A stretch of 64,000 bases of DNA from Candidatus Latescibacterota bacterium (GTDB taxonomy: Bacteria; Latescibacterota; UBA2968; GCA-2709665), in contig OZ241917.1 of the NCBI GenBank assembly GCA_965203805.1, forward strand, positions 4,608,001-4,672,000, read 5' to 3'. The translations under genes and the position numbers were made by a program. The first letter of the stretch is position 1. Each line of letters begins with the position of its first letter. Shown here in pieces: positions 2,675 through 40,704 of the stretch. Under the pieces are notes generated by a model. The model was not told the origin of the DNA and ran no database searches. It saw only the letters and a list, made by a program, of their open reading frames with translations.

Positions 2675-3616
2675 ATGAAATTCGCACTCGTCCTGAGTCC
2701 TCTCGATGAAGAACGAATGGCTCTTGCCCGCCAGATCGGCGTGACCGACCTGGTAACGACACTTCCCAATGGCGGCCCGATCTGGGACTTTGATGCCATT
2801 GTACACCACAAGCAGCGCATTGCCGACGCAGGTCTCACGTGGTCCGTGGTGGAGTCGGTCCCGATCTCGAACCGCATCACGCTGGGTCTGGACGGCCGGG
2901 ACGAGGACATCGACGCGTACTGCCAGACCATCCGCAACCTGGGCGCGGCAGGTATCGGGATCATGTGCTGGAACTGGATGGCCGTGTTCAACTGGATGCG
3001 CACGTCCTTTACCACGCGCGGCCGGGGCGATGCGTTTGTGAGCAGCTACGATAACACGCTGATGCAGGACGCGCCCCCAACGCAGTACGGGGAAGTGAGC
3101 GAAGCGGTGCTCTGGGAAACCCTGGAGTATTTCCTGGAAAGGGTCATCCCCGTGGCCGAGGAAGCCGGCGTCAGGCAGGCGCTGCATCCCGACGATCCGC
3201 CCCTATCGCCCGTTCGTGGGATCGGCCGAATCATCACCAGCGTGGACGCGTTCCAGCGCGTCGTCGACATGGTTCCCAGCGACTACAACGGAATTACCTT
3301 CTGCCAGGGCAACTTCGCGGCCATGGGCGCGGACGTGCCGGCCGCCATCCGCCGGTTTGCGGACAAGATCCACTTCTCCCACTTCCGCGACGTCAGAGGC
3401 ACCGTGCCCAGCTTCGAGGAAACCTTCCACGACGAGGGCGACACGGACATGGCGGAGTGCATCCGGGCGTACAGGGACATCGGATTCACCGGGCCCATCC
3501 GTCCCGACCACGTCCCGGTTCTGTCCGGGGAGGCAAACGACCCGCCCGGCTACACCCTGATGGGCAGGCTCTATGCCGTCGGCTATATGAAAGGCCTGTT
3601 GGACGGCACGGCCTGA
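2675..3616 (+). CDS. uxuA: mannonate dehydratase
   Basis: VVESVP, CWNWM, ALHPDDPP, NGITFCQG, HFRDVRG and RPDHVP..GY...GRLYAVGYMKGL motifs. Confidence 0.9.
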   Translation: MKFALVLSPLDEERMALARQIGVTDLVTTLPNGGPIWDFDAIVHHKQRIADAGLTWSVVESVPISNRITLGLDGRDEDIDAYCQTIRNLGAAGIGIMCWNWMAVFNWMRTSFTTRGRGDAFVSSYDNTLMQDAPPTQYGEVSEAVLWETLEYFLERVIPVAEEAGVRQALHPDDPPLSPVRGIGRIITSVDAFQRVVDMVPSDYNGITFCQGNFAAMGADVPAAIRRFADKIHFSHFRDVRGTVPSFEETFHDEGDTDMAECIRAYRDIGFTGPIRPDHVPVLSGEANDPPGYTLMGRLYAVGYMKGLLDGTA

Positions 3617-37127: not shown

Positions 37128-38318
37128 ATGACAGTTCGTAAGGATGAATGGAAGCCAGGTCCTGAAACGATTGAATCGCTGTCCTCGCTGATCCGGTCGA
37201 AACCCAAAGAAGTGCGGTGGACCGAAATCGGCTGGGAGACGGACCTCTGGACGGCCCGGCGCCGCGCGGCCGCGGTGAACAGACCGATGTTCATCTGGGC
37301 GATGAACGGAAACCCGCTCGGCTGCGTCTGAAACAATGGCATCGCGGGCCGTGAGTCCGTTTTCTCCCATCCCGGTATTATCCGGATCCTCAACGAGTCC
37401 TACGTTTCCGTTGCGGACAACTGCAGCTACACCCAGACACAGAAAGACGCCAAGGGCGAATTCTTTCGCCTCGTGGCGGAACAGGGCCATTACGGCGGCG
37501 TCACCGAACCCACGGCCACCAGGCAGGGCCTGTACGCGTGTACCTCGGACGGCGAGTTGCTGGGGTCCATCAACACGCGGGATGCCGCCCCCCTACTGGA
37601 ACTGCTAGAGCAGAGCCTGGAGAGGTGGCGCAAGCGCCCGGCCGGGGGCGCGTCCGACGATATTCCCGAATCCTATCCCATCGATCCCAGACTCGGATGG
37701 TCCTATCCGGACAACGGCCTGGCGCTCAAAGTCACGGTCCGGGACCTCCCTCGGAATTCCAATGGCCTCGACGCCCGGCACAACATCGACTTCGCGTGGT
37801 TTACGGAAGAGGAGATCCGGTCGCTGGTGCCCGGGAACCCCCGTCCGGGGCAGACCTGGCGCGCGCCGGGCTTTTTCACCAGGCGTCTCGCCCTGCGCCA
37901 TTTCATCGACACGGTCCGCGGTCAATCGCCGGGTTGGCGGGAAGAAAACCTGAAGGAAGGAGAGATTCGCCTGACCGTCGAGGCCGTCGAAGCCGACCAC
38001 GTACGGTTCCGAATGGATGGATGCATCGAGCTCGAAGCCGAACCCACGTATGAAACCAATCCCCACAGCAAGCTTACGGTGGACAAGCCACGGGGCCTGA
38101 AACTGGACCTGTTCGGCCGCATCGGGTTCGAGCCGCGCCAGCGGCGCGTCAGCGCCTTCGACGCCGTCGCGACGGGCGACCGCTGGGGCTGTACCACGTA
38201 CAACGTGCGCTTCGACGATCCCGGCCCGGCGCCCATCGGTTTCGCGTTCGAACTCGCGTCGGACGACCCCATCGAACGCACCCCTCCCGCCTCCATCGGA
38301 CGGAATTACTTCGCCTGA
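37128..38318 (+). CDS. putative selenoprotein: thioredoxin-like N-terminal domain with C-V-U (Sec68, TGA 37329-37331), 396 aa
   Basis: AAGGAG RBS and ATG at 37128. ORFs 37041-37331 and 37473-38318 share a frame, separated only by one TGA and 47 sense codons (NNGIAGRESVFSHPGIIRILNESYVSVA...) that continue the thioredoxin fold. SECIS-like hairpin follows. Confidence 0.8.
37336..37370 (+). promoter_or_regulatory. candidate bacterial SECIS element
   Basis: ATGG..GCGGGC-CGTGA-GTCCGT..CCAT stem-loop; apical loop begins 19 nt after the UGA and has G at loop position 2. Confidence 0.55.
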
Positions 38319-38350
38319 CGCGTCATCCCCGGAACACGTAAAGCAATTCA

Positions 38351-38387
38351 CGCCCCCGCAACGGATTGTCGACACGTTGCGGGGGCG
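38351..38387. terminator. 13-bp perfect hairpin after the selenoprotein gene
   Basis: CGCCCCCGCAACG...CGTTGCGGGGGCG; weak U-tract. Confidence 0.55.
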
Positions 38388-38477
38388 CGTGTGTTGGGGC
38401 GGGGCATATCTGCACCTAACTTGACAGCCATTCAGATGGTATTCGAGCCCGCCTGTACTTGTTGAAATCCGTCCCAT

Positions 38478-38510
38478 AAAAAAAACCCCGCGTCGCGTTG
38501 CGAGGCGGGG
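38478..38510 (-). terminator. intrinsic terminator of the NYN gene
   Basis: CCCCGCGTCGC-GTT-GCGAGGCGGGG stem with A8 on the + strand (U8 on the - strand). Confidence 0.8.
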
Positions 38511-38543
38511 CTCTTGAGAGTCGGGAGTACAAACACCGATCAC

Positions 38544-39200
38544 TTAAATCTCAAGTAGAAAGTCATTATGGATGCTGAGATCCGATTGTATTGTAGAATG
38601 CCTGAATTTCACCATACAGACACGAAGACCTTCGGTCCTCGCTAATTTCATAGCTGGTACCATATCAGAATCACCTGTCGCAAGGATTACCGTTGAAACA
38701 AGGCGTTTCAGAGCCAAGGAGGTCATATCTATACCCATCATCATGTCCACGCCTTTTTGCACGATGTTTGGTCTTATATCCTTAGCACCTGGAATGGTTT
38801 GAGATTGGGAACTATTATTGTATACTTTTCGGAGGTAGCTATGGCTAAGTGACCAACCCCTTTGAATTAATCTACCCTTCCGAATAGCAATATGGTCAGT
38901 TTTTCCCAATTTTGCGATTAAATCCGTGTTGGCAGAATGCTGTGGCGTCTTCGCAAAATCAATAACATCGTTACTATCTAATGGGTTTATTGTTATAGAT
39001 TCCAGTGGGTCTGCCGTGTAGTAAAATATCCGGTACAGCTTAAAATCAGATCCGAACTTATGGCTTGCCTGCCTCACAATGTCGAAGCTCTCTTTCTTCA
39101 TTATCGGGTAATCTGGAAAACTGCCAAACTTGGTCTGCAGACACTTCTTAAACCACTCACCATCGATCAGAACAGCTATTCTTTCGAAAAGAGAATTCAT
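38544..39200 (-). CDS. NYN domain (LabA/DUF88, PIN-like fold) putative ribonuclease
   Basis: AVLIDG, YRIFYY, QKGVDMMMGIDM, LATGDSDMVPAMKLARTEG, H.DF; markedly AT-richer than the flanks. Confidence 0.9.
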   Translation of the reverse strand: MNSLFERIAVLIDGEWFKKCLQTKFGSFPDYPIMKKESFDIVRQASHKFGSDFKLYRIFYYTADPLESITINPLDSNDVIDFAKTPQHSANTDLIAKLGKTDHIAIRKGRLIQRGWSLSHSYLRKVYNNSSQSQTIPGAKDIRPNIVQKGVDMMMGIDMTSLALKRLVSTVILATGDSDMVPAMKLARTEGLRVCMVKFRHSTIQSDLSIHNDFLLEI

Positions 39201-39214
39201 CAGCATTTCCCACA

Positions 39215-39337
39215 ACAAAACGAATGCCCCCTGCGCCGCGTGCGTGCCTTTTCAAGCTCGCGAACTTGAAAATTCTGCACGTCTTTGGATGGGTAACGAA
39301 GCGCAGGGGGCCAGATTTCCTCAGTGGCTCCAAGTTG
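39215..39337 (-). ncRNA. candidate structured leader/antitoxin RNA upstream of the NYN gene
   Basis: Nested stems: GCCCCCTGCGC/GCGCAGGGGGC (11 bp), CGTGC/GCACG, TTTTCAAG/CTTGAAAA; followed on the - strand by a U-rich tract. Confidence 0.55.
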
Positions 39338-39341
39338 GGAT

Positions 39342-39372
39342 AATATATACCCCGACATTGTCTCATTGTCAA
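39342..39372 (-). promoter_or_regulatory. sigma70 promoter for the leader-NYN cassette
   Basis: Minus strand TTGACA-17 bp-TATATA(TT). Confidence 0.7.
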
Positions 39373-39442
39373 GTTTATTTTATCTGAACACCCATACTCC
39401 CTTTGTGGTTTCCACCCGAACTCTGACGAAGCCGGCGTGAGA

Positions 39443-39712
39443 GTGGGGCAGGCATTCCTGTCTGCCTGCGTGTGCCAAACCTGTCATCCTGAGGAAACTG
39501 CCAAACCGACGATGTCTCCGCGCAATTGTGTTTACCGCGTTGTTGCGTAAAGGACAATCGGGAAGACGGGAGATTCTTCGCTCCGCTCAGAATGACATGT
39601 CTTGTAGTCGGCATCCGCGAAACGTCTCGGCCAAACCTGCGCTTATACTGTCATCCTGAGGAAGCTGCCAGGCCTGCCGTAGAATCAATGGCAGGCCGGC
39701 TGACAAGGGATC
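39443..39712. repeat. cluster of REP-like palindromes (GTGGGGCAGGCATTCCTGTCTGCC; TGTCATCCTGAG...; GAGATTCTTCGCTCCGCTCAGAATGACA)
   Basis: TGTCATCCTGAGGAA occurs twice (39482, 39649), with an inverted CTCAGAATGACA partner. Confidence 0.65.
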
Positions 39713-40704
39713 TACTGCGGCAGACGATTCGCCTCCTCCATTCTCTCGCTGTAGCGCTCGCTCGCTGCGTCGAGCCTGGCGCGCAATTCGGCAGGCAGCT
39801 TCAGCGCCGCGCCGGCCAGCGTCTCATCCACGTGAGCCGTGGACTCGGGACCGGCCAGCACCGATGTCACTTCCGGGTGATCCAGCACCCATGCGACGCA
39901 GACCTGCGCCCGGCCGACGCCCAGTTGTCCGGCGGCCTCGTCCAGCGCCGCGTGCATCTCCGCGAGCGGGGATCCGGGGTCGGCCTCGAATCGGGGCGAC
40001 AGCTCGCCCGCATCCAGCGGGCTGTACGCAATCACGCCGATTCCCTCGGCGCGCACGACCGGAAACATTTCGCGTTCCAGTTTTCGGATTCTGGACCGCC
40101 CGTCCGGCGTGAGCGTATAACCCGCCACAGTGTAGTAATCTTCGATAACGGTCGGCTCACTCGTGCCGGCGCCCCGGGCGTGCGCGCAGCACGCCTCCAC
40201 GAAAGCCGCATCGTGATTTGACAGACCCCAGAAGCGCGTTTTCCCGGTTCGCACGAGACGATCCATCGATTCGCAGATCTCCGCGGCGGGGGTCCCCTCG
40301 TCCGGCGAATGCAGCAGATACAGATCCACGAAATCGGTGCGCAGACGCTTCAACGACGCCTCGAGGCGCCGCGCCAGGAATTCCCGGGTGAATCTCGCCG
40401 GCCCACTCGCGCCTCCATCGCGTGCGGGACGATGTGCCGGCGGTACCTTCGTGCAGATGACAGAACGGTCACGCCGGCCCTCCAATACTCTCCCGAGCAA
40501 CTCTTCCGACCCTCCCCAACCGTATTCCTGTGCGGCGTCGAAGAAGTTGACGCCCGCGTCCAGACAATGCCGCAGCACCCGCTCCGCCTGGGGGTCGCGC
40601 GCGTTCCGCTCCAGGTGACGGAAGGCCGTGCCCTGGCAGTACCGCGTGACCATGAGATCGGTCCGTCCCAGTCGCACGGGTGTCAGTGGCGAAGCATGTT
40701 CCAT
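39712..40704 (-). CDS. aldo/keto reductase
   Basis: LGRTDL.V, FDAAQEYG.G.SEELLG, SLKRLRTDFVDLYLLHSPD, GVIAYSPL. Confidence 0.9.
   Translation of the reverse strand: MEHASPLTPVRLGRTDLMVTRYCQGTAFRHLERNARDPQAERVLRHCLDAGVNFFDAAQEYGWGGSEELLGRVLEGRRDRSVICTKVPPAHRPARDGGASGPARFTREFLARRLEASLKRLRTDFVDLYLLHSPDEGTPAAEICESMDRLVRTGKTRFWGLSNHDAAFVEACCAHARGAGTSEPTVIEDYYTVAGYTLTPDGRSRIRKLEREMFPVVRAEGIGVIAYSPLDAGELSPRFEADPGSPLAEMHAALDEAAGQLGVGRAQVCVAWVLDHPEVTSVLAGPESTAHVDETLAGAALKLPAELRARLDAASERYSERMEEANRLPQ

Follow-up and report, generated by a model that had tools for sequence, protein, structure and literature searches.

The 64,000-nt stretch of DNA analyzed here (the window; positions 4,608,001 to 4,672,000 of contig OZ241917.1, from Candidatus Latescibacterota bacterium) carries on its minus strand, between positions 38478 and 39372, a compact cassette in which a promoter and a structured leader RNA precede a single gene, coding for a protein of the NYN nuclease family. 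The cassette had been singled out from its sequence as a possible type III-like RNA antitoxin or defence system, in which a horizontally acquired ribonuclease (RNase) would be kept in check, or guided, by an RNA encoded in cis. The comparison with related loci showed that the RNA structure has been conserved and inherited together with NYN, in a stand-alone, mobile module whose nuclease has an intact active site. The features that make up the cassette are the following, given with their positions in the window, their strand and the basis for their identification:

39372-39367, minus strand: promoter -35 box, TTGACA (read from sequence)
39349-39344, minus strand: -10-like box, TATATA, after a 17-nt spacer (read from sequence)
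39215..39321, minus strand: leader RNA motif, long form, 107 nt (fold and covariance models)
39312-39297 with 39240-39226, minus strand: P1, outer stem (fold and repeat finder)
about 39296-39282, minus strand: internal loop UUACCCAUCCAAAGA (fold)
39281-39277 with 39247-39243, minus strand: P2, middle stem CGTGC/GCACG (fold and repeat finder)
39272-39265 with 39256-39249, minus strand: P3, inner stem TTTTCAAG/CTTGAAAA (fold and repeat finder)
39224-39211, minus strand: U-rich tract AUUCGUUUUGUUGUG, directly after P1 (read from sequence)
38544..39200, minus strand: NYN RNase gene, 218 aa (ATG at 39200-39198, Pfam NYN)
38476..38506, minus strand: intrinsic-terminator-like GC-rich hairpin and T-run closing the cassette (stem 38506-38485, 7 pairs, then TTTTTTTATG)
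38450..39350, no strand: AT-rich island (GC 0.40-0.47 versus 0.63-0.69 in the flanks)

The near-consensus promoter of the original prediction (TTGACA-17-TATATA) is indeed present at 39372-39344, matching the consensus at six of six bases in the -35 box and four of six in the -10 box, that is, short of the full consensus; a consensus scan had missed it because its rule requires a T as the sixth base of the -10 box. The hairpin begins about 25 nt past TATATA, and the three nested stems foreseen for it are found in the fold of the 151-nt leader (-54.9 kcal/mol). The U-rich tract, the AT-rich NYN gene with intact acidic motifs and the terminator of its own also lie where they had been placed. The U-rich tract after P1 is a candidate for the terminator- or attenuator-like 3' end of a short RNA, and between this tract and the NYN ATG there is a purine-rich ribosome-binding stretch. 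Two alternative in-frame starts exist for the gene (ATG at 39206 and TTG at 39218). The predicted absence of an adjacent protein antitoxin gene was borne out, since the list of open reading frames (ORFs) of the window shows no candidate adjoining NYN, and there is no room for one.

The 218-aa protein is a member of the NYN domain group (PF01936; LabA-like/COG1432), as indicated by its profile match, its PIN-like fold and its acidic cluster. The Pfam match has an E-value of 2.6e-10 and 41.4 bits (cut-off 24.2), with only residues 134-203 aligned. Across an alignment of 36 family members, the acidic residues D13 (IDG), D152 (KGVD) and D177/D179 (GDSD) do not vary. The AlphaFold (AF2) model has a predicted local distance difference test score (pLDDT) of 90.4, and Foldseek places 2qip (E 2e-7) and two NYN domains of MARF1 (6fdl and 5yaa) at the top of its matches; searched by sequence, the chains in the PDB gave no match at E up to 1. 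PADLOC provides weak matches only (NYN PDLC01154 at E 1.9e-4 and HEC-09 at E 0.013), TIGR00288 of NCBIfam is matched at E 0.004, far under its cut-off, and neither Abi_2 nor HEPN was matched in Pfam or PADLOC. From the fold and the residues, the protein is predicted to be an active ribonuclease. Its homologs form 145 protein clusters, and a pattern scan of species-representative genomes gave at least 600 candidate stretches, 581 of those listed encoding an NYN relative.

The leader RNA and its variants

The 151-nt leader folds into a single three-tier hairpin of -54.9 kcal/mol, compared to a mean of -44.1 kcal/mol for shuffled leaders (z -2.64), and none of 200 shuffled leaders folded as well. 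When five leaders from within the genus were aligned, compensatory changes were observed in 10 of the 35 predicted pairs. The inner stem CTTAGATG/CATCTAAG, for instance, is replaced by CCTGGATG/CATCCAGG in the same-genus genome G012, and the middle and inner stems differ in the window yet still pair. A covariance model built from these five leaders (R1) scores the window leader at 98.7 bits and detects the element in 10 of 101 related genomes, among them members of a different genus and a different family; in loci labelled Acidobacteriota, Gemmatimonadota, Myxococcota and Latescibacterota, it detects the element immediately before the start of NYN. Such taxon labels are those of the deposited records, some of which conflict, with same-family relatives being labelled both Gemmatimonadota and Latescibacterota.

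A shorter form of the leader, of about 80 nt, is made of a GC-rich outer stem of 16 bp, a 5' internal loop of 12 nt with GAUCCAAG at its end and a short hairpin, often closed by UUCG or GAAA, followed by a U-rich stretch. Across 12 such leaders, 12 of the 21 pairs carry compensatory changes. A second model (R2), built from those 12 leaders of other genera only, scores the window leader at 41.7 bits (E 1.2e-11). We designate as type A the leaders with a long GC-rich P1, a 5' internal loop with AU(C/A)(C/U)AAG and a short P2 hairpin, located before an NYN start codon, a definition that the window leader fits by its R2 score and its covariation. When 31 type-A leaders were aligned with MAFFT without regard to the structure, 88.2% of the cells pair (75.2% after shuffling) and both sides change in 16 of 21 pairs. 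The covariation score is 0.436, which none of 500 shuffles attained, compared to 0.207 for shuffled alignments and to 0.07-0.17 when the partners are slid. Sense-strand model scores lie above antisense ones by 25-60 bits. A search of positions 37500-40500 of the window against Rfam, with E up to 1, provided no match for the leader. From these sequence comparisons, the notion that the type-A leader is a structured RNA motif under selection, and absent from Rfam 15, is well supported. The covariation test upstream of NYN homologs that had been suggested with the original prediction therefore revealed a structure conserved across phyla with compensatory changes, and the possibility that no such structure would precede the homologs is contradicted by the R1 and R2 matches and the covariation data.

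Two further proposals regarding the leader were considered and discarded. A leader peptide would have to be encoded by small ORFs (39157-39372 and 39200-39358) that start inside or before the promoter, and the changes in the stems are compensatory and not codon-wise. Pairing of the loop over the start codon was seen by eye in the same-genus genome G006, where CAUCCAA faces UUGGAUG; in the window it could span only 4 nt, and it is not general.

At loci that R2 does not match, a two-tier hairpin is also found right before NYN, with other conserved loops: GACAUAUAACAG in Burkholderiales and relatives, connected to type A by GUCAUAUAAG intermediates; CCAGUAGG, together with a separate hairpin, in Verrucomicrobia-labelled genomes; and GCAGUA (5' side)/CGA (3' side) in Firmicutes, Planctomycetes-labelled and other genomes. 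All family loci were also screened for a closed hairpin with a folding energy of -15 kcal/mol or lower that ends 8-60 nt before the start and has five or more T among the 10 nt behind it. Such a hairpin was detected in 51 of 77 family loci and at 65 of 312 random anchors in the same loci, a crude test whose control rate (21%) makes it support enrichment only. In one locus from a Luteibacter metagenome-assembled genome (MAG; L056, about 2830-3000), two type-B leader hairpins lie in tandem before one NYN, the sole multi-unit case seen.

The GCAGUA/CGA loop type matches an RNA already present in Rfam, TEG147 (RF03535), which corresponds to the Firmicutes form. The gathering score of 56.1 bits is exceeded immediately before NYN in Staphylococcus borealis (82.3 bits), S. 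hominis (63.9) and a Streptococcus (57.6), and matches under that score precede NYN in 3 of 10, 8 of 12 and 7 further of 20 loci; they always end about 20-90 nt before the NYN start. Among staphylococci, the adjacency was examined in S. borealis and S. hominis. RF03535 has no match in positions 37500-40500 of the window (E up to 1) or in the whole genome. According to part of PMC5826253, Teg147 is a 60-nt small RNA (sRNA) of S. aureus HG003, assigned to a 'bona fide' class with its own promoter and terminator, in a list that leaves out the products of premature termination. Passages in other reports place it on a genomic island (PMC3053349), predict by JAR3D a sarcin-ricin motif in its internal loop (PMC13085918), and relate that it entered Rfam as a course exercise (PMC7779021). 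The Rfam entry bears the class 'Cis-reg'. NYN is not mentioned anywhere in PMC5826253, nor in the TEG147 passages of the other three.

Other RNA elements were observed downstream of some NYN relatives. A skipping-rope RNA (RF02924, 53.6 bits), described as a tRNA mimic in a 2026 preprint, lies about 400 nt downstream of NYN in a Lachnospiraceae MAG (L080, 4009-4077), and two Acido-Lenti-1 RNAs (RF01687) above gathering score, with two weaker ones, are located just downstream of NYN in an Akkermansiaceae MAG (L055, 3698-4139). In the Moraxella phage Mcat4 (L164, 1970-2170), an isrK-like RNA and a C4 antisense RNA with a1/b1 targets lie directly 3' of NYN, in a region that resembles the P1/P7-type immunity region.

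Linkage to NYN, decay and mobility

The link between leader and nuclease was approached from both sides. Among 80 genome loci gathered by NYN protein homology alone, 26, including that of the cultured Marinicella pacifica, have a sense-strand R2 copy just upstream of the NYN start. Conversely, a scan blind to NYN, in which a degenerate DNA pattern of the motif was searched for in one genome per species (about 185,000 species), yielded 37 loci, with R2 scores of at least 60 bits in 19 and of 30.7 bits in one; the remainder score under 20 bits or are unreported by R2, and by eye are coding-sequence look-alikes. Eight of the 19 true-motif loci are on contigs that had already come up. What follows these 19 motifs is a full NYN gene at nine loci (one with withheld bases inside), an NYN gene cut by the contig end after 29 matching residues at one, the first 43 NYN residues only at two (identified by hidden Markov model), an NYN remnant or frameshifted start at two (by eye), and something other than NYN at five; NYN or its remains are hence found downstream in 14 of the 19. 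Since related loci are not independent, these locus counts overstate the number of separate events. The promoter is also partly shared: TTGACA and TATAT precede the leader in four of seven other copies within the genus (L082, L090, L091 and L100), L107 has TTGACA without the TATAT box and L109 and L113 have neither, and TTGAC is found 31-45 nt before the model match in 21 of 31 type-A leaders of other taxa.

On a Latescibacterota-labelled chromosome (L127, 990-1250), the type-A leader, its U-run and the ribosome-binding site are retained as far as the start codon, and the place of NYN is taken by a 54-aa ORF that, by eye, is similar to AbrB/PrlF antitoxins, and further on by a long ORF resembling, also by eye, the DNA methylase of a defence locus. 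In two loci labelled Gemmatimonadota/Longimicrobiales (L130, 1080-1661, and L134), a type-A leader precedes an ORF starting with M(T/A)ERS(K/N)R, which is hydrophobic and 193 aa long in L130 and is not open in L134.

Comparison within the genus suggests that RNA and NYN are inherited as a unit. Identity between the window and G012 is 88% in the promoter region and falls to 68% across the hairpin and to 55% over the coding start, and this drop from the first base of the motif indicates that hairpin and NYN were replaced jointly downstream of a shared promoter. Among G006, G007, G012 and G013, identity is 90-98% for the hairpin and 52-80% for the promoter region; for the coding start, compared in G006, G007 and G012, it is 77-90%. 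The G001 copy whose NYN is closest to that of the window (77%, C-terminal part) also has the outer-stem sequence of the window. The RNA is present in 7 of 15 genomes of the genus, whereas an open NYN frame is kept only in the window and in G006. NYN is split in G001, where a second copy is cut after about 20 codons; it has an in-frame TAA in G004 and ends after about 87 residues in G007 and G012; and in G013, promoter and whole leader are intact and NYN is deleted to its last 12 codons. Decay of NYN beside an intact RNA would fit a toxin.

Several observations support, from the sequence data, the view that the cassette is self-contained and was horizontally acquired, as the original prediction had held. 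It occupies an AT-rich island and is missing from syntenic same-genus genomes: in G009 and G014, the two outer flanking genes lie about 180 nt apart with no cassette, in G008 the aldo-keto-reductase-like gene is kept with no cassette, and G013 has a cassette remnant at the syntenic site. NYN matches were found in 5 of 14 other species of the genus. Both leader and NYN gene are single-copy in the 5.87-Mb genome (blastn-short, whole genome), each matching only itself, so that the hairpin is not a dispersed genomic repeat, a possibility that had been raised; the genomic repeats sit further upstream, at 39375-39711.

This latter region, between the cassette promoter and the upstream aldo-keto-reductase-like gene, is assembled from dispersed short repeats. 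A 39-nt repeat core is found at eight other sites of the genome at 100% identity, partial copies cluster near 3.39, 3.46 and 3.59 Mb, genus relatives hold dozens, and a 23-nt direct repeat occurs in the window at 39481-39503 and 39648-39670. On the other side, between the NYN terminator and the end of a convergent 281-aa ORF, there is a perfect 13-nt inverted repeat (CGCCCCCGCAACG/CGTTGCGGGGGCG, 11 nt apart, 38351-38387), which may be the terminator of that ORF.

NYN relatives were also identified in 167 plasmid records, among them 136 from Campylobacter, 14 from Xanthomonas and 8 from Aeromonas, of which 129 are predicted to be conjugative, and in 65 phage records, 48 of them Stx2a-converting phages. 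In the coliphage ev099, NYN lies between a cI-like repressor and an N-like gene, a position that rexAB occupies in lambda, and in the Streptococcus phage Javan85 it is located between repressor and integrase. A two-tier hairpin precedes NYN in ev099, in an A. salmonicida plasmid and in a Campylobacter plasmid, followed by a clear U-run in the former two and by a weaker U-rich stretch in the latter. The ev099 protein (L158, 2513-3370) is annotated as 285 aa long, compared to about 210 aa for the chromosomal forms, the extra length being a C-terminal extension. Chromosomal type-A cassettes sit among unrelated, mostly housekeeping genes. In a survey of 51 flanking ORFs (of 151 picked) from 26 type-A loci, 24 had a Pfam match, PhyH (twice) was the only recurring family, and mobile elements or defence accounted for six of the ORFs (GmrSD_N, a type I specificity subunit, two transposases, a UvrD-like helicase and a phage tail protein). 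This heterogeneity of neighbors indicates that there is no conserved protein partner.

Possible roles of the leader

The reading that we favor, tentatively and at slightly under an even chance, is that the RNA ends most transcripts early and restrains its own NYN, by analogy with RCd22, a structured, non-repeated RNA upstream of the prophage RNase AbiF which, according to the abstract of PMC12373285, lowers expression of the RNase in cis and neutralises the protein in trans. The working principle would also resemble that of type III toxin-antitoxin systems, albeit with another nuclease fold and one RNA unit in place of a repeat array. For the cassette of the window, we infer termination at the hairpin in this organism, binding between RNA and NYN, inhibition, toxicity and defence, in steps that may be envisaged as follows. 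The strong promoter would produce a transcript starting a few to about 25 nt before the hairpin, whose conserved internal loop would be single-stranded or specially folded. The GC-rich outer stem and the U-rich tract would then terminate most transcripts, so that a short RNA would accumulate, with a length of about 110 nt in this case and of about 60-80 nt in relatives, and the NYN mRNA would come from occasional read-through only. Via the clade-specific loop, the NYN RNase would recognize its own short RNA or the matching structure with which the mRNA begins, and this recognition would restrain the enzyme, in cis by lowering NYN expression and in trans by keeping the enzyme occupied. A failure in the RNA supply, be it by loss of the element or by transcription shut-off in phage infection, would leave NYN free to cut cellular or phage RNA, and growth would stop.

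Several observations weigh against this interpretation. The cassette has a single RNA unit, in contrast to the processed repeat arrays that serve as antitoxins in known type III systems. Five of the 19 motifs found by the NYN-blind scan precede sequence other than NYN, which is more in line with a leader for the control of expression in general than with a dedicated antitoxin; in L127, homology to an NYN-bearing relative continues through the ribosome-binding site as far as the ATG and is followed by the unrelated 54-aa ORF, and in L130 the leader precedes the 193-aa membrane-like ORF. The U-run is weak in many high-GC hosts, and 26 of 77 loci fail the hairpin-plus-U test. Loop type follows host taxonomy as well as NYN clade, so that co-evolution and descent are not separated, and the RNA kept beside broken NYN genes may merely reflect recent decay. 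Finally, the sole NYN-domain candidate found with a test in E. coli, HEC-09, only weakly similar to the protein of the window (PADLOC E 0.013), gave no protection against the phages tried in E. coli, according to part of a preprint (bioRxiv 10.1101/2024.01.29.577857).

Most of the data are accounted for about equally well by a cis-acting attenuator or autoregulatory leader, which is considered nearly as likely, a reading with roughly one chance in three. In such a case, the hairpin would act purely in cis, as an attenuator and/or as the point on its own message to which NYN binds or at which it cuts, much as RNase III and RNase E regulate their own mRNAs; the short RNA would be a by-product, and NYN an ordinary RNA-processing or defence nuclease kept at low level. 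The position of the hairpin at the 5' end of the NYN transcript, with the U-rich tract behind it, the constant spacing between -35 box and hairpin in 21 of 31 leaders and the Rfam label 'Cis-reg' of TEG147 are all in keeping with this notion, as are the same leader before non-NYN ORFs in L127 and L130 and the lack of a defence island around most type-A copies, whose neighbors are mostly housekeeping genes (6 of 51 being mobile- or defence-linked). It is less easily reconciled with the retention of Teg147 in a list that drops premature-termination products (PMC5826253, in the part dealing with it), with a hairpin that is conserved better than promoter and coding sequence and stays intact where NYN is deleted, with a near-consensus promoter and a terminator yielding an excess of RNA that simple repression would not need, and with the location of the Shine-Dalgarno sequence outside the structure. 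The outliving of NYN by the RNA in five of seven genomes of the genus would also suit an arrangement in which the RNA is the product and NYN its maker or helper, the leader being processed or stabilised into a trans-acting sRNA that regulates genes or decoys a cellular motif. The counting of Teg147 as an independent sRNA (PMC5826253) and the JAR3D sarcin-ricin prediction for its internal loop (PMC13085918), each taken from part of the respective report, point the same way, and the type-A loop UCCAA(A/G) recurs in the anticodon loops of tRNA-Trp and tRNA-Gly(UCC) of the genome, a likeness of 5-6 nt only. We deem this arrangement improbable, as it has no known targets, the short loop matches could be due to chance, and the RNA is nearly always in cis to NYN and single-copy in the genome. 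A plain intrinsic terminator or insulator for the neighboring genes, possibly bidirectional and before NYN by chance, would account for the GC-rich stem with its A-rich 5' and U-rich 3' flanks, for the fact that the models also score the reverse strand (41 bits in L027, for example) and for the hairpin directly 3' of the cI-like gene in ev099. Given a promoter between the upstream gene and the hairpin, an internal-loop sequence conserved across phyla, the movement of the hairpin with NYN to unrelated genomic sites and sense scores exceeding antisense ones by 25-60 bits, this explanation is judged very remote.

A bolder form of restraint by RNA, in our opinion unlikely, would make the NYN leaders a widespread new class of RNA antitoxins acting as substrate decoys, with the loop of each clade copying the RNA that its NYN cuts. 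The TEG147 form would present a sarcin-ricin-like loop, as predicted, and the type-A form a UCCAA loop similar to an anticodon loop or T-loop; the nuclease would be sequestered by the abundant short RNA for as long as the latter was made, that is, until phage attack or loss of the element put an end to its synthesis. The tRNA genes of the genome at C1:135622-136109 contain the loops CUCCAAA (tRNA-Trp) and UUCCAAG (tRNA-Gly(UCC)), which share 5-6 nt with the leader loop AUCCAAAG/AUCCAAG, a match that bears on the decoy idea and is too short to serve as evidence.

Should restraint of NYN by its leader be confirmed, a role would be provided for a large family of uncharacterised nucleases, including those of prophage lysogeny modules and conjugative plasmids, as well as for the orphan Rfam RNA TEG147, and a new nuclease fold and a non-repeated RNA design would be added to the few systems in which an RNA restrains a toxic RNase. 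The decoy version, if true, would define a new RNA-antitoxin branch on a PIN-like fold, extending from soil Acidobacteriota to E. coli prophages and S. aureus islands. Even as a cis-acting leader, the element would represent a new structured RNA motif with clade-specific variants, and a test bed for the co-evolution of RNase and RNA. The existence of homologs in E. coli phages and staphylococci makes these ideas testable in standard laboratory hosts.

Relation to known RNA-controlled and PIN-like systems

In the type III systems ToxIN, CptIN and TenpIN, a promoter is followed by an antitoxin RNA, a terminator and an endoribonuclease gene, the RNA being made of tandem 34-36-nt repeats. The cassette shares with them the order of promoter, RNA, candidate terminator and (here predicted) endoribonuclease gene, the lack of a protein antitoxin and the presence on mobile elements. 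In contrast, the putative toxin does not belong to the ToxIN, CptIN or TenpIN families, as it matches only NYN in Pfam and its structural neighbors are NYN domains, and Tandem Repeats Finder returned no repeats between 38300 and 39750 at a minimum score of 30. Of the type III-like RNA antitoxin originally proposed, what stands is therefore the self-contained, mobile cassette with a conserved RNA, whereas the cassette is not a ToxIN-type system, its nuclease being unlike ToxN/AbiQ and a repeat array being absent; it may nonetheless work in a type III- or AbiF/RCd22-like manner.

The PIN-domain VapC toxins, known from type II systems, fall within the PIN-like nuclease superfamily as NYN does, and they offer a precedent for growth arrest through cleavage of tRNA anticodon loops or of the sarcin-ricin loop of the 23S rRNA. 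They differ from the present case in that their antitoxin is a protein, while NYN has no conserved protein neighbor here. Regarding NYN nucleases themselves, no link to a partner RNA was found in the literature searched, supplementary lists being outside its scope; likewise, neither Weinberg 2017 (PMC5737381) nor a 2026 intergenic language-model preprint mentions NYN, supplementary motif lists again lying outside the scope. From the sequence comparisons, it appears that a whole NYN family extending from soil bacteria to E. coli prophages and staphylococcal islands carries such a leader RNA.

Closer in architecture is TEG147, which, like the leader of the window, ends about 20-90 nt before an NYN-family gene, combines an outer stem and an asymmetric internal loop with a short hairpin inside and a U-tail behind, and occurs in a mobile or island setting. 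The RNA of the window is longer (107 versus 60 nt), with a third stem, has the loop UUACCCAUCCAAAGA instead of GAGUA/GAAA, and gives no RF03535 match at E up to 1; on sequence grounds, it is best described as an other-clade counterpart of RF03535 and not as a member.

The best working analogy is that with AbiF and RCd22 of a Clostridioides difficile prophage, in which a non-repeated, structured RNA also lies just upstream of an RNase. The nuclease is HEPN (Abi_2) there and NYN/PIN-like here, and the RNA motifs are unrelated, the leader having no Rfam match. Lacking both an Abi_2/HEPN match and the abiF motif, the cassette is not a member of the AbiF/abiF family.

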